A DNA stretch of 64,000 nucleotides from Candidatus Forterrea multitransposorum CG_2015-17_Forterrea_25_41 (GCA_009392915.1 CP045477.1:448001-512000); one strand, 5' to 3'; positions 5,328 to 40,362 are shown, numbered from the stretch's first letter. Notes: generated from the sequence alone by a model not told the origin. Numbers and translations are program-made.

Positions 5328-8150
5328 TTAAGAGAAAAGAGGTTTAAGATACTTTCCAGTATAACTTTTCTTTTCTTTTAAAATTTCTTTTACAGGGCCT
5401 TCAAAGATTATCTCTCCACCTTCATCTCCACCCTCAGGACCTAAATCAATTATCCAATCAGAAGCTTTAATAACATCTAAATTATGTTCAATTACTAAAA
5501 CACTGTTTCCCTTGTCAACAAGTTTATTTAAAACTTCAATTAATTTTTTAACATCATGGAAGTGAAGTCCAGTTGTAGGTTCGTCCAACAAATAAAGAGT
5601 CTTACCAGTATCTCTTTTAGATAACTCTTTTGTAATTTTTATTCTTTGTGCTTCTCCACCAGATAAAGTTACAGAACTTTGTCCAAGCTTAATGTATGAA
5701 AGACCAACATCCATTAATGTTTTTAATTTTCTTTTAAGAGAAGGTATATTTTCAAAGAAAGTATAAGCTTCTTCAACTGACATATCTAAAACATCAGCAA
5801 TTGATTTTCCTTTATATTTTACATCTAAAGTTTCATGGTTATATCTTTTACCTTTACATTCTTCACAATCAACATAAATATCAGGCAAGAAATTCATTTC
5901 AATCTTAATTTGTCCATCTCCAGAACATGCTTCACATCTTCCACCCTTAACATTAAAAGAAAATCTTCCTTGATCATACCCTCTTATTTTTGCTTCTTGA
6001 GTTTGTGCGAAAAGACTTCTGATATCATCAAAGACTTTTGTATATGTTGCAGGATTTGATCTAGGAGTTCTTCCAATAGGAGATTGATCAATAGAAATTA
6101 CTTTATCTATTTTATCTTTATAAATAATTTCTTTATGCTTACCAGGACTTTCTTTAGATTTATAAATATCATTCATTAGTTGTTTATATAAAATATCATA
6201 AATTAAAGTTGATTTTCCTGAACCTGAAACACCAGTAACAGAAGTTAAAACACCAGTTGGTATTTTTACAAAAATATTTTTTAAATTATTTTCTTCAGCT
6301 CCAACAATTTCTATAAAGTCTTTTGGTTTTCTAGTTTCTTTTTTAATTTCAACTTTAAGTTCTTTTGACAAATATTTTCCTGTTAAAGAATTTTTATCAT
6401 TTAAAATTTCTTTAGGAGTTCCTTTTGAAACTATATAACCTCCATGAACACCAGCTCCAGGACCAATATCAATTACATAATCTGCTTTTAAAATAGTTTC
6501 ATCATCATGTTCAACAACAATTACAGTGTTACCTAAATCTCTTAGTTTAAATAAAGTTTCAATTAATTTTTCATTATCTCTTTGGTGAAGTCCAATAGAT
6601 GGTTCGTCCAAGATATATAACACACCTGTAAGGTTAGTTCCTAAGTTGGTTGCAAGTCTTATTCTTTGTGCTTCTCCACCTGAAAGAGTTCCTGCCTTTC
6701 TTGAAAGAGTTAAATATCCTAAACCAACTTTTTCTAAAAATTCTAAACGAGAATTAATTTCTTTTAAAATATGTTTTGCAATTTCTTCTTGTTTTTTTGT
6801 AAGCTTTAAATTTTTAAAAAACAAAATTGCATTATTAACAGACATATCAGTAATATCAATAATTGATTTTCCAGAAATTTTAACAGCTAAGACTTTTCTT
6901 TTAAGTCTTTTTCCATGACATTTAGGACATGGTAAAGTTTTCATATATTTTTCCATTTCTTGTTTTCTATAATCAGACTCTGTTTGATGATAAAGTCTTT
7001 CTGTTTGTGGAATTAAACCCTCCCATACACCACTATATGAAAAGTTAGAAGTTCCATTCTTTCCAGAAAGATTAAAATCAATTGGATTTTCAGAACCATA
7101 CATTAAGATATTATATTGTTTTTTTGTAAAATCCTTAATTGGCATTAAAGGAGTAAAACCATATCTTCTTCCAACAGCACTTAAATGTTGTCCTCTCCAT
7201 CCATCAACAGCATTTCTATAAACAGCAATTGCACCATCTGCAATTGATTTTTCTTTATCAGGAATAATTAAATCAGGATCAAAAATCATTTTAATTCCAA
7301 GACCAGAACACTCTTCACAAGCACCAAATGGAGCATTAAAAGAAAACATCCTAGGTTCAAGTTCTTCAAAGGAAAGACCACATATAGGGCATGCCATTTT
7401 TGAAGAATATATTTGTTCTCTTTTTTCTTTTTGAGAATATATTTTTACAAGTCCATCAGGAGATTTTTTAATAGCATTTGTAACTGCTTCTATAAGTCTT
7501 GATTTTTCTTTTTCTTCAGAAGATATTTTATCAATAACTATTTCAATATCATGTTTTTTATATCTATCTAAAGTTATTGTTTCATCAGTTCTTTTTATTT
7601 CTCCATTAACTCTAACTTTAGTATATCCTTCTTTGTTTAGTTCTTCAAAAACTCTTTCATAAGTTCCTTTTTTTTGTCTAATGATTGGTGAAAGAATAAT
7701 TATTTCATCTTTAAAAGAATCTAAAATATTTTCTGTTAGCTTTTGAGGAGATTGATTTTCTATTTTTTGAGAAGGATGATCAGGACAAAAAGGAGTTCCA
7801 ACTCTTGCATATAATAATCTTAAATAATCATAAACTTCAGTAACTGTTCCAACAGTTGATCTTGGATTTTTAGAAGTTGTTTTTTGTTCAATTGAAATTG
7901 CTGGAGATAAACCATCTATAGAATCTACATCTGGTTTTTTCATCATCCCTAAAAATTGTCTTGCATATGCAGAAAGTGATTCAACATACCTTCTTTGCCC
8001 TTCAGCATAAATAGTATCAAAAGCTAAAGTTGATTTTCCTGAACCTGAAAGACCAGTAATAACAACTAATTTATCTTTTGGTATATTTATATCTATATTT
8101 TTTAGATTGTGCTCTCTTGCACCCTTAATAATAATATCTTTTAATGCCAT
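5328..8150 (-). CDS. uvrA: Excinuclease ABC subunit A (UvrA)
   Basis: 940 aa. Two ABC ATPase modules ([23 protein letters not shown]), signature LSGGEAQR twice, and zinc-finger Cys clusters ([13 protein letters not shown]...CEECKG). Confidence 0.97.
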
Positions 8151-20174: not shown

Positions 20175-20777
20175 TTATTTTATCTTTTTTAAAAAATACC
20201 AAAAAGCAATAAATAACACTACAAAACCAACTAAAAAAATCATTAAAACATTAAAATAATTTAAAACTGATTTTGAAATCTCTTCTCCAAGCTTATAACC
20301 AAGAATTGTTAAAAAAGAAACCCATAAAAAAGATCCTAAAAAAGTGTAAAAAATAAAATCTTTTAAAGGCATTTTTGAAAAACCAGCAGGAATAGAAATA
20401 TACTGTCTTACAACAGGTATTAACCTTCCAAAAAAAGTTGCTGATTTACCATATTTTTTAAAAAACAATTCTGCTTTTTCTAGATGAGAAATATTTATAA
20501 AGAATATTCTTTGGTGTCTTAAAAGATATCTCCTTCCTAAATAATAACCTATAGAATAATTTATTAATGCACCAAAAACAGAACCTAAAGTTCCTAAAAG
20601 AATTACAAGAAATATATTTAAATTACCTACATATGCAAAAGCACCTGCAGGAACCATTATGATCTCTGAAGGAAAAGGAATAAATGAACTTTCAATAGTC
20701 ATTAATAAAAACACCAATAAATGTCCAACAAATCCTGTTAAATAATCAGACAAAAATAAAATCATTTCTTCAAACAT
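20175..20777 (-). CDS. DedA family membrane protein
   Basis: 200 aa. Typical DedA N-terminal region (ESSFIPFPSEIIMVPAGAFA), ..GRLIPVVRQYISIPAG.., and 4-5 TM helices. Confidence 0.8.
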   Translation of the reverse strand: MFEEMILFLSDYLTGFVGHLLVFLLMTIESSFIPFPSEIIMVPAGAFAYVGNLNIFLVILLGTLGSVFGALINYSIGYYLGRRYLLRHQRIFFINISHLEKAELFFKKYGKSATFFGRLIPVVRQYISIPAGFSKMPLKDFIFYTFLGSFLWVSFLTILGYKLGEEISKSVLNYFNVLMIFLVGFVVLFIAFWYFLKKIK

Positions 20778-20805: not shown

Positions 20806-21510
20806 CTAAACTATATAACTAGATACAAAAAAGATTAAAAGACTTACTGGAAGTAAAAAACATAAATAAATCCAAACTTTCTTTGAATTACTATCAATCT
20901 GTGATAAATAAATTGAAGAAATTATAACATATTCAACTAAATATACAATTGCACAATAATAACTTACAATAAACAAACTAGAATTAGAAGTTAAACCAAC
21001 AACTGAAATATCAACAATTCCAGTTAAACTTTTAACCAAAGAAATTACAACCCCTAAAATCCCAGGAACAATAAAACCACCTGCAAAAAGAATAGTGTAT
21101 TTTTGCATTAAAAGAATTGAAGTTCTTTCATCAAACAATTCTCTTGATTTTAAAAAATCTTTAACTAAATTTTTATAATCTTTAGAAGTAACTGTTCCAG
21201 TAAAAACTGAATATTCTAAAAGATCTAAAAAATTTGAAAGAAAAGAAGAATTATATTTATTTTTTAAAATATTAAACACTTCTTTAGGGGTATGCCCTTT
21301 GTTTATTTTATTTAAAATTAATTTAAATTCAGAAGATATTAATTGATTACTGGAAGATGCAAGCTTTACTAAAATTACTTTTAGATCATTTGTTTTAACA
21401 AACCCAGAGATTCTTAAAACTTCATCAATTAAAGCATCTTCAAATTTCTTTCTCTTAATACTAAAAAAATAATCTCCAAATAAGTAATTTAAATACTTCA
21501 TTAATTTCAT
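20806..21510 (-). CDS. Type IV filament platform protein, TadC/FlaJ-half-like (locus A)
   Basis: Cytoplasmic helical T2SS-F-like domain followed by 3 TM helices. Sits directly downstream of a TadB-like gene and a secretion ATPase. Confidence 0.55.
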   Translation of the reverse strand: MKLMKYLNYLFGDYFFSIKRKKFEDALIDEVLRISGFVKTNDLKVILVKLASSSNQLISSEFKLILNKINKGHTPKEVFNILKNKYNSSFLSNFLDLLEYSVFTGTVTSKDYKNLVKDFLKSRELFDERTSILLMQKYTILFAGGFIVPGILGVVISLVKSLTGIVDISVVGLTSNSSLFIVSYYCAIVYLVEYVIISSIYLSQIDSNSKKVWIYLCFLLPVSLLIFFVSSYIV

Positions 21511-21533
21511 AATTAATTAACTCTCATTTTTAT

Positions 21534-22280
21534 TTATGGAAGATTAGCTTTCATTGTTAGGAATATAAACATATCAATTATTGGAAATAAAATAACAATT
21601 ATAAAAATAACAGATAAAGGTGTAAAAGATAATTCTAAAAAATTACTACCAACTAATAAAAACATTAAAAACAAAGCAGGAACAATTGCAGAAACAACAA
21701 TATAGATTAAAGATAAAAGACTTAATTTAGTGGAATAATTTTTAATTAAATAATTTTGTTTTTCAATAATACTTGAAGATAATGTTCTTAAAGATTCAGA
21801 TTTATTTAAAGAACCAGTAGATAAAACATCTTCAATCTGATAAAAAACTCTCTTTAAATCTGAGTTTTCAACACCCACAGAAATAAAAGATTCAGAAAGA
21901 GAATAACCTAAGACATTTACTTTATATAAAACTTTTTTAATAATTTGCCCAATTAAAGAAGAATCAACTCTATTTTCTAAAGCAATTTTTAAAGAAATAT
22001 TCTTATCTAAATCATTTGCAAGGTTATTTAAGAAAAAAGGAATTTCTTTATTTATTTGTCTTTGATGATTTTGAAGCTTAATCTTGTATTTAAAAAAAAT
22101 AATAAAAAAGAACATAAAGAAAAACATAATAAATAAATTAAATAAATAACTATAAGATAAACTAATAACCACTGAATCAATTAATAAAAAAATAATTAAA
22201 ATTATTAAATAGAGAATAATAAATAACAAAAAGTTCTTTCTTGTAAATATTTCTTTCTTTAAAAAAATATAATCAATCAT
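21534..22280 (-). CDS. Type IV filament platform protein, TadB/FlaJ-half-like (locus A)
   Basis: N-terminal TMs, a T2SS-F-like helical domain (EIPFFLNNLANDLDKNISLKIALE...GYSLSESF), and C-terminal TMs. Its start overlaps the ATPase gene by 8 nt. Confidence 0.6.
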   Translation of the reverse strand: MIDYIFLKKEIFTRKNFLLFIILYLIILIIFLLIDSVVISLSYSYLFNLFIMFFFMFFFIIFFKYKIKLQNHQRQINKEIPFFLNNLANDLDKNISLKIALENRVDSSLIGQIIKKVLYKVNVLGYSLSESFISVGVENSDLKRVFYQIEDVLSTGSLNKSESLRTLSSSIIEKQNYLIKNYSTKLSLLSLIYIVVSAIVPALFLMFLLVGSNFLELSFTPLSVIFIIVILFPIIDMFIFLTMKANLP

Positions 22281-24036
22281 AATCTTTTCTAATTAATATT
22301 TCATCAATTATTTTTTCTTGTTTCTTATAAACTTTAAGATAATCTTTTTTATTTTTAATATCAAATGCAAATTTTAATTTATCATAGATTTTAATAGAAT
22401 CATTAACTTTAATTAATTTATTTTTATAAATATCAAAATAAAATAAAACATTTAAAGAAATTTTTCCATCTTTATATATAACTTCACAGATTTCAGTAAT
22501 ATTTCTTAAATCAATAGATTTACCTTTTAAATATTTATTATATCTTCTTTGAGTTATAATTAAATCAATTACACCTAAATCAGTTTCTAAAACACCATAT
22601 GACTTAAACCTTAATAGAGCTTCATTAGCACTTTGAGAATGGAAAGTTGTATATGTACCTTTTGCTTGACCACAAAGCATAGATTCAATTAAATATTTTG
22701 ATTCTTCTCTACTTCTAATTTCTCCAATAACAACTCTATCAGGTCTCATTCTTAAAGTGTTTATAACTAAACTTTCAAGATTAATTCCAATCTCAGGATT
22801 TACAAGTGTAAAAACTTTATGTTTATGAGGGATATTTATCTCTCTAACTTCTTCAACAACAACAAATCTTTCATCTAAAGGAACAAAAGAAAGTAAAGTG
22901 TTTAAAGTGGTTGTTTTTCCAGAACCAGTATTTCCAACAACAATTATATTTGAATCTGTTAAAAAACAAAGACTTAAAAAAACTAAAGCTTCTTTTGAAA
23001 CTGTATTAAAAGAGATTAAATCTTTAATTGTAAATGGTTTTTGAGAAAATTTTCTAATAGTAATACAAGCACTTTCAGTTATTGGGTTTATAACTGCATT
23101 AAGTCTTGAATTATCTTTAAGATAAGTATCTAAAATTGGATTTTTTAAAGTAATATATTTATTTGAGTGCCAAGAAAGTTTATTAATTAAATCCCTTATT
23201 ACTTGAGAAGAAGAATAAGAAAGATTACTTTCAAGCCAACCATAATATTTATGATAAACATAAAGTGATTTTCCTTCTCCAATAATTACAATTTCTTCAA
23301 GATAAGGATCTTTTAATATTTCTGTTAATGGTCCATAATTATAAAGATTATTAAAAGAAATATCTATAATATAATTAAATTGATCTTCTTCAAGCTCTAT
23401 GTTATTAACATAACAATAATCAATTAATTCTTTTTCAATATCTTCTTTTATTCTTTCAGTTGAAACTTTTTCAATATATTCTGTTCTAGTTTTATAAGAA
23501 TCTAAAATAAAGTTAATAACTTCAATTTCTTGGATTGAAAGATTTTGATGAAAAATTAAATATCTTTTAGAAGAATCTTTCATTTCAAATACATTTTTAG
23601 AAATATTTCTTAAGATTTCTTTTTTTAAATCTAAAACAACATAACCTAAATATCTATTAAGAATATATTTCTTTTCATCATCAGTAAACTCATCCATTAT
23701 CTTTAATAAAGCAGGATTATTTTTATAACAAAACATAGAAAAAGAACTTAAAGCACATAAATCACATTTATAAGCTTTATTTTTTCTTAAGATAATAGCA
23801 TTATGTGGACAAGCTTTAAGACACTCACCACACCCATCACATTTTTCAGAATCAATTGCTACAACGCCTTTAGAAACATAATAAATAGCATTTTTTTTAC
23901 AAGCTTTAATACAAGGAGCATCTTTACAATTGGTACAATTGAATACACAAGAAGAGTCTTTTTTTGTAAAATTGTAAGGACAATTTAGAAAAACATCTGT
24001 ATCTTTGATAAAATCTTCTGTTTTCTTAAGATACAT
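22273..24036 (-). CDS. FlaI/VirB11-type secretion ATPase with an N-terminal 2x[4Fe-4S] ferredoxin-like domain (locus A)
   Basis: Cys motifs CTNCKDAPCIKAC and CDGCGECLKACP (residues ~34-77). Intact Walker A VVGNTGSGKTTT (nt 22909-22938), Walker B-like RPDRVVIGEIRSREE, and His-box ..TTFHSQSA. Confidence 0.85.
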   Translation of the reverse strand: MYLKKTEDFIKDTDVFLNCPYNFTKKDSSCVFNCTNCKDAPCIKACKKNAIYYVSKGVVAIDSEKCDGCGECLKACPHNAIILRKNKAYKCDLCALSSFSMFCYKNNPALLKIMDEFTDDEKKYILNRYLGYVVLDLKKEILRNISKNVFEMKDSSKRYLIFHQNLSIQEIEVINFILDSYKTRTEYIEKVSTERIKEDIEKELIDYCYVNNIELEEDQFNYIIDISFNNLYNYGPLTEILKDPYLEEIVIIGEGKSLYVYHKYYGWLESNLSYSSSQVIRDLINKLSWHSNKYITLKNPILDTYLKDNSRLNAVINPITESACITIRKFSQKPFTIKDLISFNTVSKEALVFLSLCFLTDSNIIVVGNTGSGKTTTLNTLLSFVPLDERFVVVEEVREINIPHKHKVFTLVNPEIGINLESLVINTLRMRPDRVVIGEIRSREESKYLIESMLCGQAKGTYTTFHSQSANEALLRFKSYGVLETDLGVIDLIITQRRYNKYLKGKSIDLRNITEICEVIYKDGKISLNVLFYFDIYKNKLIKVNDSIKIYDKLKFAFDIKNKKDYLKVYKKQEKIIDEILIRKDYD

Positions 24037-30190: not shown

Positions 30191-30919
30191 TTACTTCTTC
30201 TTTTTATCATCTTTTTTAGCAGCAGGAGCAGCTTTACCAGCTGGAGCTTTTGAATCTTTACCAGCAACAACTTTACCTTTTGCAGCTTTAAGTTCTTGAG
30301 CTTTTGCTTCTTCTGCTTTCTTTTCTTCTTCTGCCATAGCAGCAAGTTTTCTTCTCTTCTTTGTAGTTCCAACAGATTTTAAGTTGTCTTTATTTTCTTC
30401 AATTACAACTTTCATTCTACAAGGAAGTTTAGAATCAAGTCTTTCAAAGACTTTTTTTACAAATTCAACATTTGCTTCATCAACTAAAACACTAAATAAT
30501 TTTTGATTAGATTTAACTCTTGCAGCAACACCAACAACTTTTCCAAAAGGGCATTGACTCATACCTTGTTGAATTCTGTCGGCTTTAGCACCTTGAGCTT
30601 GTTTATTTTCTCTTAAGAAAAATTGAGGATATACTCTTAATTTCATATAGAAATTTTGAGCAGTTAATTTTTTATTTAAGTTTCTTACAACAGTTGTTCT
30701 TACAGATTCTAAAGCTGAATCTCTAATTTGTATTTTTTCAGAAGTTACATAATGAACTACATGAGAATATTGTTTTTCTCCAAAACCCATATGGTATTGT
30801 CTAACTTTAATACCTGGAGTTCCGCCTACATAGTTCTTTCTATGCACTCTTTTTGCAACTCTTGTATATGCTCTTTTATTTACTTTTGGATTATAACAAT
30901 GTCCTGGTCTAACACCCAT
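30191..30919 (-). CDS. rpl10e: Ribosomal protein uL16 (L10e) with a 56-aa Ala/Lys-rich C-terminal extension
   Basis: N-terminus MGVRPGHCYNPKVNKRAYTRV...GGTPGIKVRQYHMG is typical of archaeal L10e, with a GGTGA SD upstream. The tail is KKRRKLAAMAEEEKKAEEAKAQELKAAKGKVVAGKDSKAPAGKAAPAAKKDDKKKK. Confidence 0.9.
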   Translation of the reverse strand: MGVRPGHCYNPKVNKRAYTRVAKRVHRKNYVGGTPGIKVRQYHMGFGEKQYSHVVHYVTSEKIQIRDSALESVRTTVVRNLNKKLTAQNFYMKLRVYPQFFLRENKQAQGAKADRIQQGMSQCPFGKVVGVAARVKSNQKLFSVLVDEANVEFVKKVFERLDSKLPCRMKVVIEENKDNLKSVGTTKKRRKLAAMAEEEKKAEEAKAQELKAAKGKVVAGKDSKAPAGKAAPAAKKDDKKKK

Positions 30920-31290: not shown

Positions 31291-33081
31291 TCATCCATAA
31301 GTAGTTGCTTTAATACTTTTAACTACACCACTTACAAGAACCCAGCCACCCCATTGACCAGTATTTCTGGATGAATTGGTTACAGATAAAGTCCAACCAG
31401 GTTCACTGTCACCAACTTCCCAATATTTACATTTTTTAGAAGAACCAAAAGCTTCTACTTTAATATTATAATTACCAGCAGGAACTTTCCAAGATCCATC
31501 TTTATCAGTTGCAAGTTGTGAACCACCATATTTAAGATATAAACCATCATTTCCATAATCATTAGTTATTGAACAAACATATGAAGCACTTGTTGAAGAA
31601 TAATTAAAAGTGAGACCTGCTTGAGAAGTATCATTTTCAGAAGCTAAACTAACTACTCCTTCTAAAACTAAATTACCTTGTGTACTTAAACCCTGGTAAA
31701 AGAAACCTGCAGAAGACCAAAATTCATTTAATTTAACACCACCACCTGAGAACGCAGGCTGAGCTACAACTGTACCACCTGATTGCGACCAACCAGACAA
31801 ACTAGTAATACTAGTTTGATTTAATAAAACTACAGCAGGAGCTGATAGAACAAGATTAATACTTGAACTTGTTGCTGTTCTTGAAGCACCATCTGTTACA
31901 GTTACTCTAATATATTTTGTACCAGTAGTTGAAAATGAATAAGTTGGATTTGAAACTGAAGTTCCAAAAACAATCCAAGTACTTTGATTTGTACTATATT
32001 CCCAGGAATAATTAGATACTCCAGAAACTGCATTACTTACAGAAGAATTAAAACTTATTGTTTGACCAGTATCATAATTTGTACCAGTTGTTGGAGAAGT
32101 AACACTTACAGCTAAAGGATCACTAATTAAAATATTACTAACAGTATCAGAATAAACTTGATTAATAGGAGAAGGTCTTGAAGCATCTGTAACTAAAACT
32201 CTAAACTCATAAGTCCCACCTGTTGCAAAACCATTTGTTGTAGTATAACTATTAGAACCAAAGTTAGTCCAACCAGTACTGTTTCTATTATACTGCCATT
32301 GATAAGATTTAGTACCAATTGCATTTGAAACACCTACATCAAATATTATTCCTTCACTAAGATTATAAACATCACTTGCATCAGGAGTATAAATAGTTGC
32401 TGTTAATGGAAGAACAACTGTAAAATCTTCACTTGAAGTTGAAATATCTCCAGTTCCAGAATCTGTTACTTTATAATAAATAGTATAGCTTCCTGTTGAA
32501 GATAAAGTTTGAGATAAAGAAGCACAATTAGTACCAACTGCAGTATTAGTATCATTTGAGTTTAATATCCATTCACAAGAAACTGTTGAAACATTATTAT
32601 CATAATTTCCAGTAAATGAAATTGTTTCATTATTATTCCAAGTAGTTCTTGACATTGTAATACTTGAAGATAACAAATCTAAAATATTTATTCCAATTGT
32701 TTGAGAATCACTTGAAGAATCAAAATCATCTAAAGTATCTAATTTAATTGAATAATCATTAAATACTGAAAAAGAATAACTTGTATTACAATCAGTACTA
32801 AAAGATGTAAATGATGGTAAGTCAGCTCTCTTATGACTCCAATTACAAGTTACATTTCCAACATTATTACTATATGAAGAATTAAAATTAATTGTTTTTG
32901 TAACATTATAATTTGATTCTTCTGTTGGATTTAATATTGTTGATGAAAAATCATCAAAAATTTCAACAAATAAATCATCACTAAAAGTTCCTTCATCATC
33001 ATTTGCAATTACTAAAATTTCATAAATTCCAGGAGTTGTAAAAGTATAAGAAATATCACACAAGGTATCTGAAGGATTCAT
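31291..33081 (-). CDS. PKD-like-repeat plus lectin/jelly-roll-like surface protein; likely the distal part of a pilin-adhesin gene interrupted by an in-frame TAA
   Basis: Repeats share the pattern [ST]VSCEW.../...Y.F...G.Y.I.V.V.D..G and are Ser/Thr/Asn/Gly-rich. There is no signal peptide, and the annotated Met lies inside a repeat. The frame stays open for 46 more codons upstream, to the stop of ORF 33220-33744. Confidence 0.7.
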   Translation of the reverse strand: MNPSDTLCDISYTFTTPGIYEILVIANDDEGTFSDDLFVEIFDDFSSTILNPTEESNYNVTKTINFNSSYSNNVGNVTCNWSHKRADLPSFTSFSTDCNTSYSFSVFNDYSIKLDTLDDFDSSSDSQTIGINILDLLSSSITMSRTTWNNNETISFTGNYDNNVSTVSCEWILNSNDTNTAVGTNCASLSQTLSSTGSYTIYYKVTDSGTGDISTSSEDFTVVLPLTATIYTPDASDVYNLSEGIIFDVGVSNAIGTKSYQWQYNRNSTGWTNFGSNSYTTTNGFATGGTYEFRVLVTDASRPSPINQVYSDTVSNILISDPLAVSVTSPTTGTNYDTGQTISFNSSVSNAVSGVSNYSWEYSTNQSTWIVFGTSVSNPTYSFSTTGTKYIRVTVTDGASRTATSSSINLVLSAPAVVLLNQTSITSLSGWSQSGGTVVAQPAFSGGGVKLNEFWSSAGFFYQGLSTQGNLVLEGVVSLASENDTSQAGLTFNYSSTSASYVCSITNDYGNDGLYLKYGGSQLATDKDGSWKVPAGNYNIKVEAFGSSKKCKYWEVGDSEPGWTLSVTNSSRNTGQWGGWVLVSGVVKSIKATTYG

Positions 33082-33219
33082 TCTTACTTGTGATCCACCT
33101 GCAATTGTATGATACCATTCACAAGAAACACTTCCTCTTTGATAAAGTGTATCAGTTTCAAAAGAAACAGAAGTGTTTACTCTGAATGAATCAAAATTTG
33201 TAACATTTGAAAAGAAAAT

Positions 33220-33744
33220 TTAAGAAGATGGAAGTTCTACAGCACATTTTCTTAAATCAATTGTTTTTTTAGGACAAGTAGAGTTTGATAAAGTAAAAAC
33301 CTTTAAATCTAAAGGATCAATTATTTCTCCAGAATCAACATTAATATCAGAATTTACAATTGTAAAATCAGTTGTTGATTTTAATTTTTTAATTTCTCCA
33401 GATAAAATAGGATTATCAAAATTACCATACATTTTTAGAACATTTGAAGAATTTTGAGAAGTTCCTTGAATATTTAAAGAAAGATTATAAAAATCAATAG
33501 GGGTTGGGTTTCTTAATAAAACTTCAATATTTCCAGTAGTTGAATCAAGATTACAAGATTCTACAACTAAATTATACTTAATACAATCCATTCTAGAAAC
33601 TTCTTGTAATTGATCTTGTGAAACATCTAATTTTTCTCTAACAGATGTTTTTGACCAAGATAAAAATCCTGCAACTAAAACAGCTGTTACCAAGATTAAT
33701 AAAACTACAGAAATTATTGCCGAAATTGATTTTTTTCTATTCAT
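33220..33744 (-). CDS. Archaeal type IV pilin-like protein (class III signal peptide)
   Basis: N-terminus MNRKKSISAIISVVLLILVTAVLVAGFLSW fits the archaeal pilin N-terminal domain: basic residues, a small residue at -1, then a hydrophobic helix. It ends at a TAA in frame with the next ORF. Confidence 0.7.
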   Translation of the reverse strand: MNRKKSISAIISVVLLILVTAVLVAGFLSWSKTSVREKLDVSQDQLQEVSRMDCIKYNLVVESCNLDSTTGNIEVLLRNPTPIDFYNLSLNIQGTSQNSSNVLKMYGNFDNPILSGEIKKLKSTTDFTIVNSDINVDSGEIIDPLDLKVFTLSNSTCPKKTIDLRKCAVELPSS

Positions 33745-33830
33745 AAATATCTTTTTTAAAATATAATATAATTATAGATATTATAGAAACTATTTTAAAG
33801 GTATCTTTATTCTTTTAAAAAAATAAATAT

Positions 33831-34172
33831 TTAAAAAGAAATAATATCATTTATTTTTATAAAAGAAATATCTGTTTCAATTGGAAGTTCAATTATATAT
33901 TTAGCTTTCTTTTTTGGAGAATAAAAAGTAAAAGGTCTTAATCTTTTTTTAATATCAATAACTTTTTTATTTGAATCTAGAAAAAGAACATTTATTGAAT
34001 AGAAAACAAAAAGCATATGAATTGAAGAGCCTACAATAGATTCATATTCTCTTTTAAAAATAAGACCAAAATCAAATTTCTTTCTTGGAAAAAACATAAG
34101 TCCAAGTCCTTGTTTTAAAGGAGAAATTATTTTCTTTTTTTTAATTATTATTTTATTATTAACTTTTATCAA
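33831..34172 (-). CDS. DUF192 (COG1430) family protein
   Basis: GLGLMF...IHMLFVFYSINVLFLDSNKKVIDIKK...AKYIIELP follows the DUF192 GLM/...M...LD..F.d/...vLE pattern. Confidence 0.65.
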   Translation of the reverse strand: MIKVNNKIIIKKKKIISPLKQGLGLMFFPRKKFDFGLIFKREYESIVGSSIHMLFVFYSINVLFLDSNKKVIDIKKRLRPFTFYSPKKKAKYIIELPIETDISFIKINDIISF

Positions 34173-34178
34173 AAATAA

Positions 34179-35330
34179 TCACACTTTTTTTTTTAAACTT
34201 ACCCTATATAAAATAACAAAATCAATATCAGATTTTCTAATCTCAAAATCAAAAAATACAGCATCTGGTACAAAAATAGCATACTCTGCACAAGAAAGAC
34301 CACATTCACTTTGATCAAAAGGTAAAAAATATAGATTATTACTATATGTTTTATCTAGAATATATTTAGAACTAATAGATTTTAAAGCAATGACTTCAGA
34401 AATATTTACTTGTTCTAGCTGATTACGATTCATATAGGTAATAGTGTCAATTAAAACACTCTCAGCATCTGGTTTTGGAACAGCAATTTGAAAGATTAAA
34501 ATTGTAAATATAAAAAATATGAAAATATATTTGATAAAATTAAAACTACTTTCTTCTTTTATTGCAAACATTATAAAAGAAATAAAGATAGAAAGAACAA
34601 TTGCCATATAAAGAAGGAAATTATCAAAAAATATTCTTGTTATTAAATCTTGATCTGCATACCATAAAAAATTATTACCTAGTATAATATTTATGAATAA
34701 AATTACAACTAAAAAGATTACAAATAAAACAATGGATAAATAATATAAATTTAAAAAATATTTTTTCTTTTGTGTTTCTTCTTTAAAAATAGAAATATCT
34801 TTTGAAATATTTAAAAGAACTCTATCAAGAGGTATAGAACTTTCTTTAAAAGTCTTTAACAATATTAAAGTGTGAGTGATTATTGGACTTTTAATAGTCT
34901 CATTAATACCTGATAAAGCATTTTCAAAATCATCTCCCCAAGAAACTCTATTTGCTATTCTTTTTATTTCTGTATCAATTGAACCATAAACATTTGATGT
35001 TGTGATATTGTTTAATGATATTGATAAATTATTTGTAGATTTATACTCTCTCGATAAATCTTGTAAAAAGAATGTAAAAGAAGTTTCAATTGCTTTCTTT
35101 TTAAAGTGTTTTAAAACATATTCTAAAACAAAACCTAAAAAACTTACGAAAAAACCAAAAAAGAAAACTGCATAGTATAATTCAGTATGAAGAAAATATT
35201 TATTTGATAAATGAACAATTAAAAGACCAGATAAAATACTTGCAAGAATTAATATTTGGTATTCATAATTATAAATTAATAGTTTTAATTTAATATTCAT
35301 TTTATCTAAAAATTTATTTTTTTCTATCAT
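34179..35330 (-). CDS. Type IV filament platform protein, TadC/FlaJ-half-like with an extra C-terminal domain (locus B)
   Basis: N-terminal TMs, a T2SS-F-like helical domain (..IKRIANRVSWGDDFENALSGINETIKSP..), 3 TMs, then a ~90-aa extracytoplasmic tail. Confidence 0.6.
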   Translation of the reverse strand: MIEKNKFLDKMNIKLKLLIYNYEYQILILASILSGLLIVHLSNKYFLHTELYYAVFFFGFFVSFLGFVLEYVLKHFKKKAIETSFTFFLQDLSREYKSTNNLSISLNNITTSNVYGSIDTEIKRIANRVSWGDDFENALSGINETIKSPIITHTLILLKTFKESSIPLDRVLLNISKDISIFKEETQKKKYFLNLYYLSIVLFVIFLVVILFINIILGNNFLWYADQDLITRIFFDNFLLYMAIVLSIFISFIMFAIKEESSFNFIKYIFIFFIFTILIFQIAVPKPDAESVLIDTITYMNRNQLEQVNISEVIALKSISSKYILDKTYSNNLYFLPFDQSECGLSCAEYAIFVPDAVFFDFEIRKSDIDFVILYRVSLKKKV

Positions 35331-35346
35331 TTAAAAATCAATCTCT

Positions 35347-36189
35347 TCATTTATATAAAATCCCAATTAATACAAATTCAATTACTGCAAATATTATTGA
35401 AAAAATCAACAATGATTCTTTTAATAAAAAATAATCTGTAAAAGTTATAAAAAATATTATTAAAATAACAATAAAAAAGAAAAATAAAAATATTGACATT
35501 AAAAATAAAATATTAATTCTACTTTTCTTTTGTTCACTTAACTCTCTTTTAGATTGTTCTAAATTAGTTAAGAAATCAAGAATAACTTGATTTAAGTCTT
35601 CTTTTTGATCAATAACTTCAATTAATTTTCTAAAGAAGTTTTTTTCAACTTCAGAATATGTTTCAGAAATTATTGATTTAAAAGTATCTTTAAGATTATG
35701 ATTTCTTTTATTTAAAGCAATTATTTTCTTTGCTTCTCTGCTTAATATATCATTATTTTCTAAGTTTTCAAAAACATTCAATACATCTTTAATAGTTAGA
35801 TTTTCATCTCTTAAAACAGATAAATGTTTTATAGATCTTTGAAATTCACTACCAATTTCTTTTTTTATATTATTTAAAATAAAAAAAGGATATTTAAATA
35901 AAAGTAAAAAAATCATAAAAGCAAAAGTAAAAGAAATAAAAATAGTTATAAAAAAACTAAAAAGATTAAACAATATTCCAAGTCTAATCATTAAATAAAT
36001 AAAAGCAAACTCTATAACTATTAAAAAAAATATAGAAATAAAAGAAATATTTGAAATATAACTAATAGAATCTTCATTGATACCAGTATATTCTAAAACT
36101 CTATCAAAATTTTTAAAAGTACCTTTAAATTGCATAACAATATCTTTTAAGAAAAATAAAGATATACTTGTTAAGAATTTACTAAACAT
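35347..36189 (-). CDS. Type IV filament platform protein, TadB/FlaJ-half-like (locus B)
   Basis: TMs flank a helical cytoplasmic domain (..IKHLSVLRDENLTIKDVLNVFENL..). The gap to the upstream ATPase-like gene is 7 nt. Confidence 0.6.
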   Translation of the reverse strand: MFSKFLTSISLFFLKDIVMQFKGTFKNFDRVLEYTGINEDSISYISNISFISIFFLIVIEFAFIYLMIRLGILFNLFSFFITIFISFTFAFMIFLLLFKYPFFILNNIKKEIGSEFQRSIKHLSVLRDENLTIKDVLNVFENLENNDILSREAKKIIALNKRNHNLKDTFKSIISETYSEVEKNFFRKLIEVIDQKEDLNQVILDFLTNLEQSKRELSEQKKSRINILFLMSIFLFFFFIVILIIFFITFTDYFLLKESLLIFSIIFAVIEFVLIGILYK

Positions 36190-36196
36190 ATTTTTT

Positions 36197-39100
36197 TCAC
36201 TTTATATCGAGTCTTTTAAACAACTCGTCCTTTTCATAATTATATTGAGAGATAATACTATTAAAATCTTTGTAATTGTATACTTTTGAATCCTTCATCC
36301 ATCTCATAAGTTTCTTTTTCTTTAAAAAATCAACAACATTTATTGAAGAAGATAAAAGATTAATATTGTATTTATTTTCGGATATTTCTAAATCTACAAC
36401 TACACTTTCATTTTTATTAATTATTTCTTTAATATTTACAATTTGATAAGTTTCTTTAAAACCTTGTTTAATTCTTTTAATTTCTATTAGAATAGATTTT
36501 TGATTAACCATTTTTAATTGTTCAATAAATTTATCAGCAACATTTGGTTTTATTGAAAAGATATTTAAGTTATACCAAGAAACATCAAAAATATCTTCTC
36601 CAAACTCATCAATTGCAATAATATCTGGTTTCTGAGAAATTGTTTGTTCAATAATTAAACGTTTACTTAAATCTGCATTATTTGTAAAAATTCTATTAAT
36701 CCATTCTTTTTGAGGAAGTTTAAATCTATCGTATGCCTGAACAGTTATAATTTTCTGATCAGGATAAAATAAAAGTATAGAATTATAAATTACAAAAGAA
36801 TCATCAACATCATGTAAAATAACTTTATAGTTTTCTGAAATTGCAGACCAGATATATGAAAATACATCTACAGAACCAATAGATGTATTAACTAAAGCAA
36901 CAGGTGTTAATGGTTCATCAAGATATTTTTTAATTACAAAAGAAGAACCTTTACTACTAGTATCTCCTAAAGAATAAAGACCTTCAACTTTATAACCATT
37001 AGGTAAATATCCATCAATCACAGGATGTTCTGGAGTTATATAGATACCCATATTTTTAGTTAAAATAGTTACAAAGTTATTTAACTCAATAATATCTTTA
37101 AAACTAATATTTGTTTTTAAAACACCATACTCTACATGGTAAACTATAAGATTTGATTTTTCACCAGAACAACTAACTTCAATTATTTTTTTATCAAGTA
37201 AAAGATTAGTTAAAATACCTAACCCAAAAAATTCTCTTTGAATAAATTTAAGATAAAGTTTTTGTTGTAATTTACCTAAACTATAAGATAATTTTTCAAC
37301 AGAAATATCAAATATTTTTTGAATATATTTATCAAGACTATGTTTATCTCCATTAAAAGAATAATAGTTTTTATCGATTGTATTAAAAAATACTTTTTTT
37401 AATTGAATATATTCTTTTTCTTGTTCACTATTAAGTTCTGGTTGTACTAAATTATAGAAAAGACCTTTAGTATTATCATAATGTATTGTAACATATGTAA
37501 AATCATCTATAGAATATTTATCAAAAATATTTTTTATATTTTCTTCAAATGAAGCAATAGGATCTTGATACACTAAAGAAGAAAATAGAGAATTGTCAGA
37601 AGATAATTTTTCTTGATATATTTCTTTATTTATTTTAACAGGATTTTTTCCAGCATCTTTTGGAAGGATATAATCCATACCTTTTTCTCTTAAGTCTTTA
37701 AATTTTTCTGCAATTAAATCATTTTTAACTTTCGGAGTTAATTTTACTTCTTTGATAATTTTAATTTCTTGTTCTTTTGGTAATGATTCTTTTTTAATTG
37801 TTTTAGATATTTTTTCATCATCATTATCTTCATCAGAATAATTCTCTTTTGAAGTAACTTTTTCTTCTCTTATAGAAGGAGAAATATATTTTTTATTTTT
37901 GTTTGAAATTTTAGATTTATCTTTTTTATTTTTAGGAGAAGAAATTTCTCTCATACCTTTATATATTCTTTCATCATCTTCTTTAGATAAATCAACATCA
38001 GAAAATACTTTTTTAACATCTTCTTCATCTTTATCTATTTTCTCATTTAAAACATTAACATCAAATTTTTCTTTTTCTTTTTCTTCTAAAGTTTTTGATT
38101 TTTTTAATTTAGAAATATTATTTTCAATTTCAGAATTTAATTTTACTTGATTATTATCAATTACAAAATTTGGTGTTTTTTCAGAAGATTCATTTGTTTT
38201 AATTTCAGAAGATAAAGAAGAATCTTCATTTAAAACTTTTAAATCATTTTTTGAATCTTTATCATATACAGAAAACTTATCTTCAACAGTGTTAGATAAA
38301 TCTTTAACATCATCTTCAATTGCAAAAATATCTGGAACTTCAATTTCTTCAAATAAACCATTAGCCTCACCTAAAGAAGAATTATTTAAATGAGAACTAG
38401 AATTTTTAGAATCTATTTCTAAATTACCTGTGTTTTTAGGAAAATCATTTGAATTTGCTAAAGTTTCTTTATTTTGAGAATCTTTATTTTTATTTACAGA
38501 TAAATGATCTATTTTTGAATATAAATTTTTAACATCATACTTTGGAAAATCAATTTTACTTTTTTTAGGTTTATCATCTAAAAAAGAAAATGATTCTAAA
38601 TAAACTTCTTGATCAAGTTTACTTGCTTTTTTATTTAATTGATCTAATAAATCATCTACATTTTCATTTTTTGATTTTACTTCTGAAAAAATATCATTTG
38701 ATTCTTTACTTTCAGAATATTCTTTTGGTTTAGATACATTTTCTAAAATATCTTTCAAAAGAGACATGGTTTTTTTATTATTATTTGATTCATCAAAATT
38801 TATTTCTTTTTTAATTGAATTATCAATATGATCTATTTTAGGCTCACTTATTAAAAATGAATTTGAAGGTTTTATTTTTTTTTCAGAAGATGAATCCGAA
38901 AGTAGTAGTTCATGAGATGAATCAGGGAGTAATAATTCATTATTAATTTTTGATGAAATTAATTTATTAGATGTTGATTTTTTATCAACTTTATCTAAAG
39001 GAACTTCTTTTTTAAAAATATTAGAATTATCAACCTTATCTAAAGGAACTTCTTTTTTAGAAATATTAGAATTATCAACTTTATCTAAAGGAACTTCTTT

Positions 39101-39547
39101 TTTAGAAATATTAGAATTATCAACTTTATCTAAAGGAACTTCTTTTTTAGAAATATTAGAATTATCAACTTTATCTAAAGGAACTTCTTTTTTAGAAATA
39201 TCTAAATTATCAACTTTATCTAAAAGAATCTTTTTTTTTCTAAAAGGATTAAAATCTTTATATTTTTCTTCAATATCAGAAGTGTCAACTTTTAAGTTTA
39301 CTTTCTTAACATCATTATAATTTTTATTTAAAGAAAAATCATCTTTTTTAGTTTCTGGTAAAACTACATCAAATTTTTGTAATTTTTTAGAATTACTATT
39401 ATTTTTTAAAGAACTATCAATTTTATCTTCTTTTAAAGAACTATCAAATTTATTATTTTTTACAGAATCTGAAGCTTTAGATATAGATTTAGATAGAGGA
39501 ATTCTTTTAATAACCTTAAAACCAGAAAAATTATCCTCTCCACCCAT
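36197..39547 (-). CDS. FlaI/ArlI-like secretion-ATPase homologue without a Walker A P-loop, fused to a ~700-aa low-complexity repeat-bearing N-terminus
   Basis: The C-terminal ~400 aa align collinearly with the locus A ATPase and the FlaI pattern (GLGILTNLLLDKKIIEVSCSG...VYHVEYGVLKTNISF...SSFVIKKYLDEPLTPV...). GxxGSGKT is replaced by ILHDVDDSFVI (nt 36788-36814). A Walker-B-like PDIIAIDEFGED is retained. Confidence 0.8.
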   Translation of the reverse strand: MGGEDNFSGFKVIKRIPLSKSISKASDSVKNNKFDSSLKEDKIDSSLKNNSNSKKLQKFDVVLPETKKDDFSLNKNYNDVKKVNLKVDTSDIEEKYKDFNPFRKKKILLDKVDNLDISKKEVPLDKVDNSNISKKEVPLDKVDNSNISKKEVPLDKVDNSNISKKEVPLDKVDNSNIFKKEVPLDKVDKKSTSNKLISSKINNELLLPDSSHELLLSDSSSEKKIKPSNSFLISEPKIDHIDNSIKKEINFDESNNNKKTMSLLKDILENVSKPKEYSESKESNDIFSEVKSKNENVDDLLDQLNKKASKLDQEVYLESFSFLDDKPKKSKIDFPKYDVKNLYSKIDHLSVNKNKDSQNKETLANSNDFPKNTGNLEIDSKNSSSHLNNSSLGEANGLFEEIEVPDIFAIEDDVKDLSNTVEDKFSVYDKDSKNDLKVLNEDSSLSSEIKTNESSEKTPNFVIDNNQVKLNSEIENNISKLKKSKTLEEKEKEKFDVNVLNEKIDKDEEDVKKVFSDVDLSKEDDERIYKGMREISSPKNKKDKSKISNKNKKYISPSIREEKVTSKENYSDEDNDDEKISKTIKKESLPKEQEIKIIKEVKLTPKVKNDLIAEKFKDLREKGMDYILPKDAGKNPVKINKEIYQEKLSSDNSLFSSLVYQDPIASFEENIKNIFDKYSIDDFTYVTIHYDNTKGLFYNLVQPELNSEQEKEYIQLKKVFFNTIDKNYYSFNGDKHSLDKYIQKIFDISVEKLSYSLGKLQQKLYLKFIQREFFGLGILTNLLLDKKIIEVSCSGEKSNLIVYHVEYGVLKTNISFKDIIELNNFVTILTKNMGIYITPEHPVIDGYLPNGYKVEGLYSLGDTSSKGSSFVIKKYLDEPLTPVALVNTSIGSVDVFSYIWSAISENYKVILHDVDDSFVIYNSILLFYPDQKIITVQAYDRFKLPQKEWINRIFTNNADLSKRLIIEQTISQKPDIIAIDEFGEDIFDVSWYNLNIFSIKPNVADKFIEQLKMVNQKSILIEIKRIKQGFKETYQIVNIKEIINKNESVVVDLEISENKYNINLLSSSINVVDFLKKKKLMRWMKDSKVYNYKDFNSIISQYNYEKDELFKRLDIK
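38986..39228 (-). repeat. Near-perfect 45-bp tandem repeat (~5.4 copies) inside the ATPase-like gene
   Basis: Unit caactttatctaaaggaacttcttttttagaaatattagaattat starts at 38986, 39031, 39076, 39121 and 39166, with a partial copy at 39211. It encodes (DNSNISKKEVPLDKV)n in frame. Confidence 0.92.
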
Positions 39548-39630
39548 AAATATGCCTTCTTTAAAATATATTTTAATATATAGATATTAGTTCATTAGAT
39601 TTATAAATCTTTAGATATTTTTTAATAGCT

Positions 39631-40362
39631 TCAAATAACAAAAGAAATAATTTTTGGAATAATTTCAAAAACATATAAAAGAATTAGAAAGATATAACTT
39701 ACTAGGATTAATATAATAAATGGAATTAAAGGAGAAAACCACACCTTAGAAATATTATGATTTTTAGCAATAACTTTAATTTTTTTAATTTCATTTTCTG
39801 GTTCAATATTTGGCATAAAAACAATTTTTGAAATTAATTTATTATTTTCTACATACAATTTTTCTAAAGGAGTATAAAAATTATTTACTTTTTTTAAAGA
39901 TAAAGGAACCCCTAAAAACATTAGATATAATGATTTAAAAAAATTATATTTAGGAAAATTTCTTGAAAATAAATTATATAAAAATAAGAAAACAGGTATA
40001 AGTAAAGTTAAAACTAAAGCAAAAAAGAAAATAAACATTGGAAAATATATATCAAAAATATTTGTAAATGATATTGCAAAAATAGTATAAAGATCCCCTT
40101 CTCCTATATATGTAAAATAACTAATCTTTCCTAAAACATAAAAAATTAATAAAAATATAAAACTTACAGCAAGTTGTATTAAATAACCTTTCCATAAAAT
40201 AAAATCTGTTTTAAAAACAAAAATACCTAAATAAAGAATACTAAAGATGGCTAAGAAAAATAAAGACATTATATTTATTTCTCTATACTTAATATCTTGA
40301 TAAGTTACATACAATAAAATAATTATAGAAAAAATAATTATTGGTAAATAAATATAATCCAT
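39631..40362 (-). CDS. Archaeal prepilin/preflagellin peptidase (A24 family, FlaK/PibD/EppA-like)
   Basis: Polytopic membrane protein with two catalytic-Asp contexts at canonical spacing: YQDIKYREI (Asp23) and YIGEGDLY (GxGD, Asp~89). Confidence 0.8.
   Translation of the reverse strand: MDYIYLPIIIFSIIILLYVTYQDIKYREINIMSLFFLAIFSILYLGIFVFKTDFILWKGYLIQLAVSFIFLLIFYVLGKISYFTYIGEGDLYTIFAISFTNIFDIYFPMFIFFFALVLTLLIPVFLFLYNLFSRNFPKYNFFKSLYLMFLGVPLSLKKVNNFYTPLEKLYVENNKLISKIVFMPNIEPENEIKKIKVIAKNHNISKVWFSPLIPFIILILVSYIFLILLYVFEIIPKIISFVI

Follow-up and report, generated by a model that had tools for sequence, protein, structure and literature searches.

Two type IV filament loci of a DPANN archaeon, one with a putatively ferredoxin-fused assembly ATPase and one with a P-loop-less ATPase homologue

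Background

DPANN archaea are thought to rely on surface filaments for attachment to their hosts, and the loci encoding these filaments are mostly "dark matter". Here we describe two such loci in a stretch of 64,000 nucleotides (hereafter the window) from Candidatus Forterrea multitransposorum CG_2015-17_Forterrea_25_41 (GCA_009392915.1, CP045477.1:448001-512000). In locus A (positions 20806-24036), this DPANN (Iainarchaeota-like) archaeon encodes motor and platform of a Tad/Epd-like type IV filament machine; the ATPase of the locus bears a predicted iron-sulphur (Fe-S) domain. Locus B (31291-40362, minus strand) encodes a pilin-like protein, a prepilin peptidase, platform proteins and a homologue of secretion ATPases that is devoid of a P-loop.

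The closest described systems are archaeal "System 1" or clade 1 (Epd-like) and the bacterial Tad machine (CpaF/TadA-TadB-TadC). As here, an ATPase gene is followed in both by two platform genes with a single T2SSF domain each, and System 1 has been reported in DPANN, too. The preliminary description of the window took the split platform to be atypical of archaea. On the contrary, it is already known in archaea, where it defines System 1/clade 1, and two-gene platforms occur also in clade 2, clade 4B and some DPANN 4A loci (PMC4858521; bioRxiv 10.64898/2026.04.22.720090). Likeness to Tad extends to the ATPase of locus A, which is as similar to CpaF as to FlaI, and to a DUF192 gene, which in several bacterial Tad loci is likewise located downstream of TadC-like genes. 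Differences are evident as well. Locus A has no pilin, peptidase, TadZ or secretin gene in cis, and its ATPase, equipped with the putative N-terminal polyferredoxin, falls far short of the equivalog cut-offs of TadA and FlaI. Both loci share the two platform genes of clade 1 (Epd), whereas neither a peptidase of its EppA type with nine transmembrane segments nor class III major pilins of about 70 amino acids were found in the inspected DNA. This DNA comprises about 84 kb (the 64-kb window and two 10-kb flanks); the contig itself measures at least 663 kb, about 87% of which lies beyond the inspected part. In place of EppA, locus B encodes a peptidase of 243 amino acids belonging to A24/Arc_PepC_II.

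ATPases of subclade 4F have "cysteine-rich" N-termini, read as possible disulfides; "nanoarchaea" ATPases of this clade are without identifiable cognate pilins, for which other pilins in trans have been suggested, and ATPase/TadC modules, which act with pilins in trans, follow an evolutionary course separate from that of pilin sets (PMC4858521). The ATPase of locus A can be likened to subclade 4F by description, but its cysteines follow the pattern of three to four [4Fe-4S] clusters and match Fer4 models. ATPases retrieved from Methanosarcinales and other archaea had no Cys-rich N-terminus. Cysteine or metal-cluster modules are also tied to filament motors in AapX, the Fe-S protein of Aap loci, and in the tetracysteine Zn motif of GspE/PilB. 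AapX is, however, a separate protein and the Zn motif lies C-terminally, whereas the predicted multi-cluster ferredoxin of locus A is fused N-terminally.

PilT with inactivated Walker box still lets PilU drive retraction (PMC11656802). The homologue in locus B may be comparable, i.e. a non-hydrolysing, platform-engaging protein that lets an active paralogue power the machine. The PilT mutant was engineered, however, and concerns retraction. In locus B, the inactive form occurs naturally, is ancient, characterises the whole family and is encoded together with pilin and peptidase; its putative interaction with an active partner would serve assembly. ArlH/FlaH, acting with ArlI/FlaI, is another non-hydrolysing nucleotide-fold partner of an archaeal filament motor. 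ArlH is KaiC/RecA-like and still binds ATP, in contrast to the full GspE/FlaI fold without P-loop in locus B. The literature searched mentions neither a pilus ATPase fused to a ferredoxin, nor an interpretation of the N-terminal domain as polyferredoxin, nor a natural, family-wide GspE/FlaI paralogue without P-loop, nor a link between DUF192 and pili or Tad, an absence that is no proof of novelty.

Results and discussion

Motor and platform genes of locus A

Locus A and the gene that follows it encode these proteins:

22273-24036, minus strand: type IV filament assembly ATPase, predicted active, 587 amino acids (T2SSE and Fer4 families), with a putative N-terminal poly-[4Fe-4S] domain
21534-22280, minus strand: platform half 1, TadB-like, 248 amino acids (weak T2SSF match, 18.0 bits, and orthology)
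20806-21510, minus strand: platform half 2, TadC-like, 234 amino acids (Pfam T2SSF, 30.1 bits)
20175-20777, minus strand: DedA/VTT-family membrane protein (Pfam VTT_dom, 83.4 bits), 28 nucleotides downstream of platform half 2

Open reading frames (ORFs) and Pfam matches agree with the preliminary description in composition, coordinates and spacing of locus A. The ATPase gene overlaps the gene of platform half 1 by 8 nucleotides (22273-22280), and a gap of 23 nucleotides (21511-21533) separates the two halves; translation of the ATPase gene is coupled to that of the two platform genes, each with a single T2SSF domain. Platform half 2 exceeds the Pfam T2SSF cut-off (30.1 versus 25.2 bits) and keeps its position across every A-type locus examined (compared loci and protein clusters are numbered L and P, respectively). 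Platform half 1 alone stays below this cut-off (18.0 versus 25.2 bits); it is orthologous (E 3e-25) to a T2SSF-annotated gene of L096, and its orthologues come after the ATPase in L008, L012, L015, L017, L018, L096 and L097.

The ATPase matches Pfam T2SSE (PF00437) with 122.4 bits (cut-off 24.9), and its sequence is found unchanged on a JGI metagenome contig of 663,621 bp (Ga0100381_1000002). Its Walker A (GNTGSGKTT), Asp box (VVVEEVREI), Walker B (RPDRVVIGEIR) and His box (TFHSQS) are intact, as are the N2D arginines (TIRKF, NSR), and the catalytic motifs are invariant or nearly so among 46 homologues. Its closest solved relatives in PDB are A. fulgidus GspE (9e-45), FlaI (7e-37) and CpaF (1.6e-34). 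An AlphaFold2 (AF2) model based on the 46 homologues (pLDDT 90.7) retrieved 2oap as best Foldseek match (E 2e-34, TMt 0.71), followed by 4ihq and 8rjf, which are FlaI and CpaF, and the two-domain fold of N2D and RecA-like C-terminal domain is found in the model. By its sequence, the protein is an intact hexameric-type secretion ATPase and predicted to be active. It reaches neither the FlaI/ArlI equivalog NF058587 (175 bits, with 106 bits for the locus B homologue; cut-off 550) nor TadA/CpaF TIGR03819 (146.8 versus 373 bits), and Pfam and NCBIfam scans of the window proteins revealed no archaellin, ArlH or ArlJ context.

The putative Fe-S domain corresponds to residues ~1-115 (nucleotides ~23692-24036). 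The protein exceeds three Fer4 cut-offs (Fer4_6 33.3/25, Fer4 32.2/21.1, Fer4_11 30.8/26.2), and PDB matches of the domain include PsrB/NrfC (1.5e-8), FdnH (1.8e-8) and Fe-S subunits of hydrogenases; the top 50 of the Foldseek search with the full model were all ATPases, with no structural match of the Fe-S domain itself. Twelve cysteines (C19, C34, C37, C42, C46, C66, C69, C72, C76, C91, C94, C103) are invariant among the 46 homologues, which share 35-84% identity. Distant A-type members (at most 45% identity) contain 16-18 cysteines in four groups with a DmsB/NrfC/FdnH-type pattern, while 12-13 are present in the clade of the window (at least 53% identity), in which Cys1-3 of group I and Cys4 of group IV are absent. 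According to the established DmsB/FdnH coordination, these four are presumably the ligands of a single cluster. One cluster would thus have been cleanly lost, and the clade appears to keep three complete [4Fe-4S] ligand sets. Simultaneous disappearance of all four ligands of one cluster is as expected if the clusters are real, and the cysteine pattern argues for Fe-S clusters over disulfides.

Two Fer4-ATPase protein clusters of the close clade, P0018 and P0021 (L098:10001-11839), have only eight cysteines in their first 150 residues and are matched by no Fer4 model of Pfam, which suggests further stepwise loss of Fe-S clusters. Fer4-less A-type ATPases are interspersed in the tree among Fer4-bearing ones, suggesting repeated loss (or gain) of the domain.

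Next to locus A itself, neither pilin nor peptidase was found, as had been claimed before. Scanning of all window ORFs of at least 40 amino acids for class III signals yielded only 33220-33744, which belongs to locus B, and the 10-kb flanks on both sides contain no further class III pilin. By Pfam scans, the 84 kb harbour no T2SSE or T2SSF gene beyond loci A and B, and the only A24 peptidase found is that of locus B (39631-40362). The same holds for the A-type loci of relatives: neither class III pilin nor peptidase was detected in those of L008-L013, L014-L018, L096-L098 and L100. A-type operons appear to obtain pilins, class III signal peptidase and the DUF192 accessory in trans.

Arrangement of A-type loci varies among relatives. 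In the close clade, genes for PCC and phosphoribosyl pyrophosphate (PRPP) synthetase (divergent) precede those for the Fer4-ATPase, two platform halves and DedA; one genus has an extra 327-amino acid gene in this locus. The DedA gene, whose product gives 111 bits with the NCBIfam UptA-like model (under the cut-off of 250), is at the same place in L008-L013, L098, L107 and L109 and forms the fourth operon gene within the clade. L014, L015, L017 and L018 (Micrarchaeota, Woesearchaeota and unclassified DPANN) have the order DUF192, ATPase, half, half, with ATPases of 464-494 amino acids and no Fer4 domain. Distant Fer4-bearing loci L096 and L097 are neighboured by large Sec-signal proteins, and in one of the two a KaiC-like ATPase is found nearby and DUF192 7 kb upstream. 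Distant A-type and bacterial CpaF loci were among the matches listed in a profile search of contigs, the best having 36-45% identity.

These neighbourhoods bear on the question whether locus A builds a filament at all. The ATPase/platform chassis might have been reused for redox-linked membrane translocation, e.g. uptake or secretion of DNA or protein, or lipid-carrier-linked surface modification together with DedA. Such a role appears improbable to us: all characterised ATPase + TadB/TadC modules build type IV filaments, and DUF192 stands beside A-type ATPases as in bacterial Tad loci. It would explain the polyferredoxin fusion, the consistent absence of pilins in cis and the large Sec-signal proteins flanking distant members; conservation of the DedA neighbour speaks for it as well, but this linkage is confined to one clade and absent from L018, L096 and L097.

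P-loop-less ATPase homologue of locus B

Locus B and its upstream neighbour encode the following proteins, listed from the first gene of the locus, with the neighbour last:

39631-40362, minus strand: class III signal (prepilin) peptidase, family A24, 243 amino acids (Arc_PepC_II)
36197-39547, minus strand: P-loop-less ATPase homologue, 1116 amino acids (homology to A. fulgidus GspE and FlaI, AF2 fold)
35347-36189, minus strand: platform half 1, 280 amino acids (Pfam T2SSF, 37.8 versus 25.2 bits)
34179-35330, minus strand: platform half 2, 383 amino acids (Pfam T2SSF, 34.6 versus 25.2 bits)
33831-34172, minus strand: DUF192 protein, 113 amino acids (Pfam DUF192, 37.4 bits)
33220-33744, minus strand: pilin-like protein, 174 amino acids (class III signal)
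31291-33081, minus strand: PKD-repeat surface protein, 596 amino acids (Pfam PKD_4, 38.1 bits)
40370-41281, minus strand: conserved neighbour of 303 amino acids, of uncertain membership in the system (synteny; no Pfam match)

Locus B was thus found where and as the preliminary description had placed it, with pilin, peptidase, platform halves and a P-loop-less ATPase homologue about 7 kb away from locus A. At their closest edges (24036 and 31291), 7.25 kb lie between the two loci, which are on the same strand, and 12.2 kb separate the ATPase of locus A from the P-loop-less homologue.

The C-terminal ~476 amino acids of the 1116-amino acid protein (nucleotides 36197-37627) align end to end with GspE/FlaI (E 3.5e-30 with A. 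fulgidus GspE, 2.7e-21 with FlaI). Its Walker A position reads "ILHDVDDSFVIYNS" versus "VVGETASGKTTTLN" in GspE/FlaI, so that HDVDDSFV stands opposite GETASGKTT. Pfam T2SSE does not match the protein. Family-wide, Walker A is lost, both N2D arginines are changed to lysine and Asp-box Glu to Gln, and the His box is deleted. Its AF2 model (pLDDT 83.5) nevertheless aligns with 2oap at a TM-score of 0.74 (TMq). Judging from these features, the protein is a structural homologue of secretion ATPases and predicted not to be an ATPase itself.

Homologues constitute what appears to be a discrete conserved family. A word-indexed search identified 22 of them at 41-73% identity, none (0/22) with Pfam T2SSE; next come active Thermoplasmata ATPases with ~25% identity. 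Among 1.84 billion representatives scanned exhaustively with HMMER, 18 members reached at least 660 bits, followed by a sharp fall. As these members are clusters at 50% identity, the family comprises at least 18 of them, with intact ORFs. The GxxxxGK[ST] motif is missing from all 18 representatives as well as from weaker outliers P0254 and P0257, while 39 of the 41 inspected matches listed from 208 bits down possess it (P0297 is without the motif, and the sole match in P0295 is off-position). Another distant match of the profile, P0256 (1154 amino acids), contains two complete ATPase modules in one chain, i.e. it is a tandem-duplicated secretion ATPase; Walker A and Walker B begin at residues 393 and 461 in the first module and 903 and 971 in the second.

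To estimate selection, ratios of non-synonymous to synonymous substitution rates (dN/dS) were determined between the window and sister strain L107 (dS 0.18). The ATPase-like domain has dN/dS of 0.035 (48 synonymous, 8 non-synonymous differences), and the active ATPase of locus A is, with 0.093, under looser constraint. Values for the platform halves of locus B are 0.065 (half 1) and 0.055 (half 2). Low ratios in domain and platform halves suggest that locus B is functional and that the domain has a conserved non-catalytic role; the homologue probably acts non-catalytically. The N-terminal ~600-640 amino acids (37748-39547 for ~600) are, on the other hand, hypervariable (dN/dS 0.48), rich in K, S, D, N and E, and include a 45-bp tandem repeat (5.7 copies, 38982-39239). 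Neither signal peptide nor transmembrane segment was recognised in the protein, which is predicted to be cytoplasmic. Between strains, its N-terminal region is 44-78% and the remainder 97-100% identical. The N-terminal region of homologues is shorter (~330 amino acids) and contains short conserved motifs (PFxExxSFL, LIEEIEIPE, DYxLPxD).

Since every catalytic motif is lost and content of the locus varies, with platform or pilin genes gone in some relatives, one might take locus B for a degenerating remnant and the homologue for a functionless pseudogene product. This is hardly credible given the substitution ratios just mentioned, by which a decaying relic is essentially excluded; moreover, at least 18 clusters at 50% identity preserve an intact ORF, the fold is predicted with confidence and the homologue is retained where other B genes vanish.

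Synteny of locus B proceeds in relatives from TrkH, TrkA, NMD3, beta-CASP, (ATP-grasp) and the 303-amino acid protein to the peptidase and the P-loop-less homologue, and further over the two platform halves, DUF192 and pilins to L10e, methyltransferase and NDK. Platform halves and pilins vary; peptidase, P-loop-less homologue and DUF192 form, together with the 303-amino acid neighbour, the invariant core. In L094, two large pilin-like proteins are encoded, and in L095 (13268-14752) platform half 2 is fused to DUF192. The A-B synteny of the window is common to L098, L107 and L109.

The peptidase scores 40.1 bits with Arc_PepC_II (cut-off 29.9) and 22.1 bits with Peptidase_A24, under its cut-off of 26.5; both catalytic Asp motifs (YQDIKYREI, GEGD) are present. 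The pilin-like protein starts with MNRKKS followed, after the cleavage site, by ISAIISVVLLILVTAVLVAGF. Its leader is short and basic with a [KR][GAS] cleavage motif, and a hydrophobic helix spanning ~20 residues is present. None of the pilin models in Pfam matches the protein; it shares 31% identity with the N-terminal portion of a LamG pilin-like protein (389 amino acids) of L094. A search for its paralogues returned only three homologues (61-62% identity), none of them pointing to further copies in this genome.

Origin of the two loci

Duplication had been put forward as one possible origin of the ATPase pair, to be examined by phylogeny. Recent duplication of A into B is rejected by profile scores and neighbour-joining (NJ) bootstraps. 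With the profile of the P-loop-less family, long active ATPases (P0087, P0083) score 250-262 bits, Thermoplasmata ATPases 205 bits and members of the Fer4-ATPase family at most 124 bits. In the NJ tree (440 columns, 48 taxa, 200 bootstraps), A-type ATPases with and without Fer4 domain form one clade in 197 of 200 bootstraps, and the P-loop-less family is monophyletic in all 200. The two are sisters in 0/200, a figure to be read with the long branch of the P-loop-less family in mind. Platform halves of A and B share no significant BLAST similarity. The two loci thus appear to have separate origins, with the P-loop-less homologue derived from a different ATPase lineage.

Dependence of locus B on locus A

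Nothing within locus B could serve as its energy source, yet the locus is strongly selected, which argues that it depends on locus A. The species of P0138/P0158 points in the same direction. It has kept peptidase, P-loop-less homologue and DUF192, its B platform halves and pilin are absent, and a Fer4-ATPase of the P0031 cluster, whose loci consist of Fer4-ATPase, two halves and DedA, shares an 813,239-bp contig with the homologue. Dependence is further supported by DUF192, which crosses between the locus types: in four DPANN loci (L014, L015, L017, L018) it is found directly upstream of A-type ATPases. All B-bearing genomes that could be checked carry locus A, the reverse being not true. Pairing by cluster members and accession numbers revealed Fer4-ATPase and P-loop-less homologue together in three metagenome-assembled genomes of the P0138/P0158 species (MAGs; HNW05581/HNW06044, HPV66543/HPV66356, HRS42799/HRS42581), and accession pair MFH0905865/MFH0906441 suggests co-occurrence in another MAG.

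The preliminary description supposed that the two loci may be interdependent. Catalytic loss in the homologue, selection, P0138/P0158 and DUF192 are in favour of this idea in one direction; its mutual form does not hold. Any dependence runs from B to A, since A-type operons are widespread without B and the close relative L100 (P0166 species) contains locus A and no locus B upstream of L10e, which is the syntenic site. Whether A powers the filament of B is, in our estimate, evenly balanced. Interdependence is plausible but unproven, as about 84 of at least 663 kb were inspected.

Several points weigh against dependence. Co-occurrence may merely reflect near-universal presence of A in the clade, because A-type operons are far commoner, as L100 also illustrates; the Fer4-ATPase family is far larger than that of the P-loop-less homologue. 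Cross-complementation between archaeal ATPases and platforms is limited according to literature, which, together with the lack of relationship between A and B platform halves, argues against promiscuous pairing. Given the inspected portion of the contig, another active ATPase or more pilins may lie elsewhere. Finally, the [4Fe-4S] clusters, on which the redox part of the model below depends, are deduced from sequence only.

The two loci could also be independent systems, A using scattered pilins or secreting cargo and B being served by another ATPase or working without a motor. We regard this as possible, if on the unlikely side. Occurrence of A-type operons in many DPANN lineages without B, L100, descent of ATPases and platform halves from different lineages and the large part of the genome that lies beyond the inspected DNA are all compatible with it, and in archaea stand-alone pilin genes are frequently found (PMC4858521). 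Against independence, no other T2SSE, T2SSF or class III pilin gene was detected in the 84 kb, DUF192 joins the two locus types, and locus B of P0138 is without its own platform, so that an autonomous locus B is impossible there.

If locus B does depend on locus A, the latter would represent a generic motor-and-platform module and the former a lineage-specific module for substrate, processing and adaptor; the only substrate candidates for locus A seen in this genome are those of locus B. The Fe-S ATPase of locus A would power extraction and polymerisation of the pilin. Its P-loop-less paralogue would be an adaptor or scaffold on a platform, recruiting or positioning the active ATPase or gating access of pilins, and the Fe-S domain would render ATPase activity redox- or oxygen-sensitive. 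Powering of the B filament by A, the adaptor role and redox control are all inferred. Taken to its full extent, the model is a two-operon motor, in which a redox-controlled polyferredoxin ATPase is joined to platform, peptidase and pilins by an ancient P-loop-less paralogue as obligatory adaptor, the long hypervariable N-terminus of which would be disordered; this we consider rather doubtful. Mixed hexamers of both proteins, as suggested in the preliminary description, are a speculative sub-case of dependence of B on A.

Should the model be true, the homologue would be a natural "pseudo-ATPase" serving as subunit of a type IV filament motor, the first of its kind. A natural secretion ATPase paralogue without activity would act as a structural motor part, an idea for which engineered PilT mutants have so far been the sole support. 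In some archaeal pilus ATPases, the "cysteine-rich" N-termini would then be multi-cluster ferredoxin domains, and filament assembly would be under redox or oxygen control in organisms without respiratory chains. In archaea and bacteria alike, DUF192 would be a hitherto unrecognised accessory that is widespread among Tad-like machines.

DUF192 (COG1430) recurs beside Tad-like ATPase operons in both archaea and bacteria. Besides the DPANN loci mentioned above, this concerns L044, L060 and L096, and in several bacterial CpaF loci (Acidobacteriota, Chloroflexota; L075, L076, L081, L091-L093) DUF192 comes after TadC-like genes. In L076, DUF192 and a TadE-like MVEFVVVGP motif are found in a single ORF.

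Other genes of the window

The PKD-repeat protein of locus B is a candidate adhesin or filament cargo. It is the fastest-evolving gene compared, with 74-81% identity between strains and dN/dS of 0.60. It displays internal repeat similarity; the called ORF apparently begins mid-domain, and no N-terminal signal is recognisable in it.

The 303-amino acid neighbour is always located upstream of the peptidase, with orthologues 56-62% identical in L003-L007, L094, L095, L102, L104 and L108. It begins with MLYNIDMHTH and resembles PHP phosphoesterases by eye only. In relatives it is preceded by an ATP-grasp_5 gene, which does not occur in this window.

Ribosomal protein L10e/uL16, encoded at 30191-30919 between the two loci, has a C-terminal extension of ~70 amino acids rich in lysine, alanine and glutamate (...AEEAKAQELKAAKGKVVAGKDSKAPAGKAAPAAKKDDKKKK). 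L10e is mostly similarly long in relatives (238-255 amino acids), with 218 amino acids in L095. G+C content of the window is 20-32%, mostly 20-26%, and four tRNAs are encoded in it. Bacterial-type UvrC (1841-3403) and UvrA (5328-8150) genes are also present in the window of this small archaeal genome.

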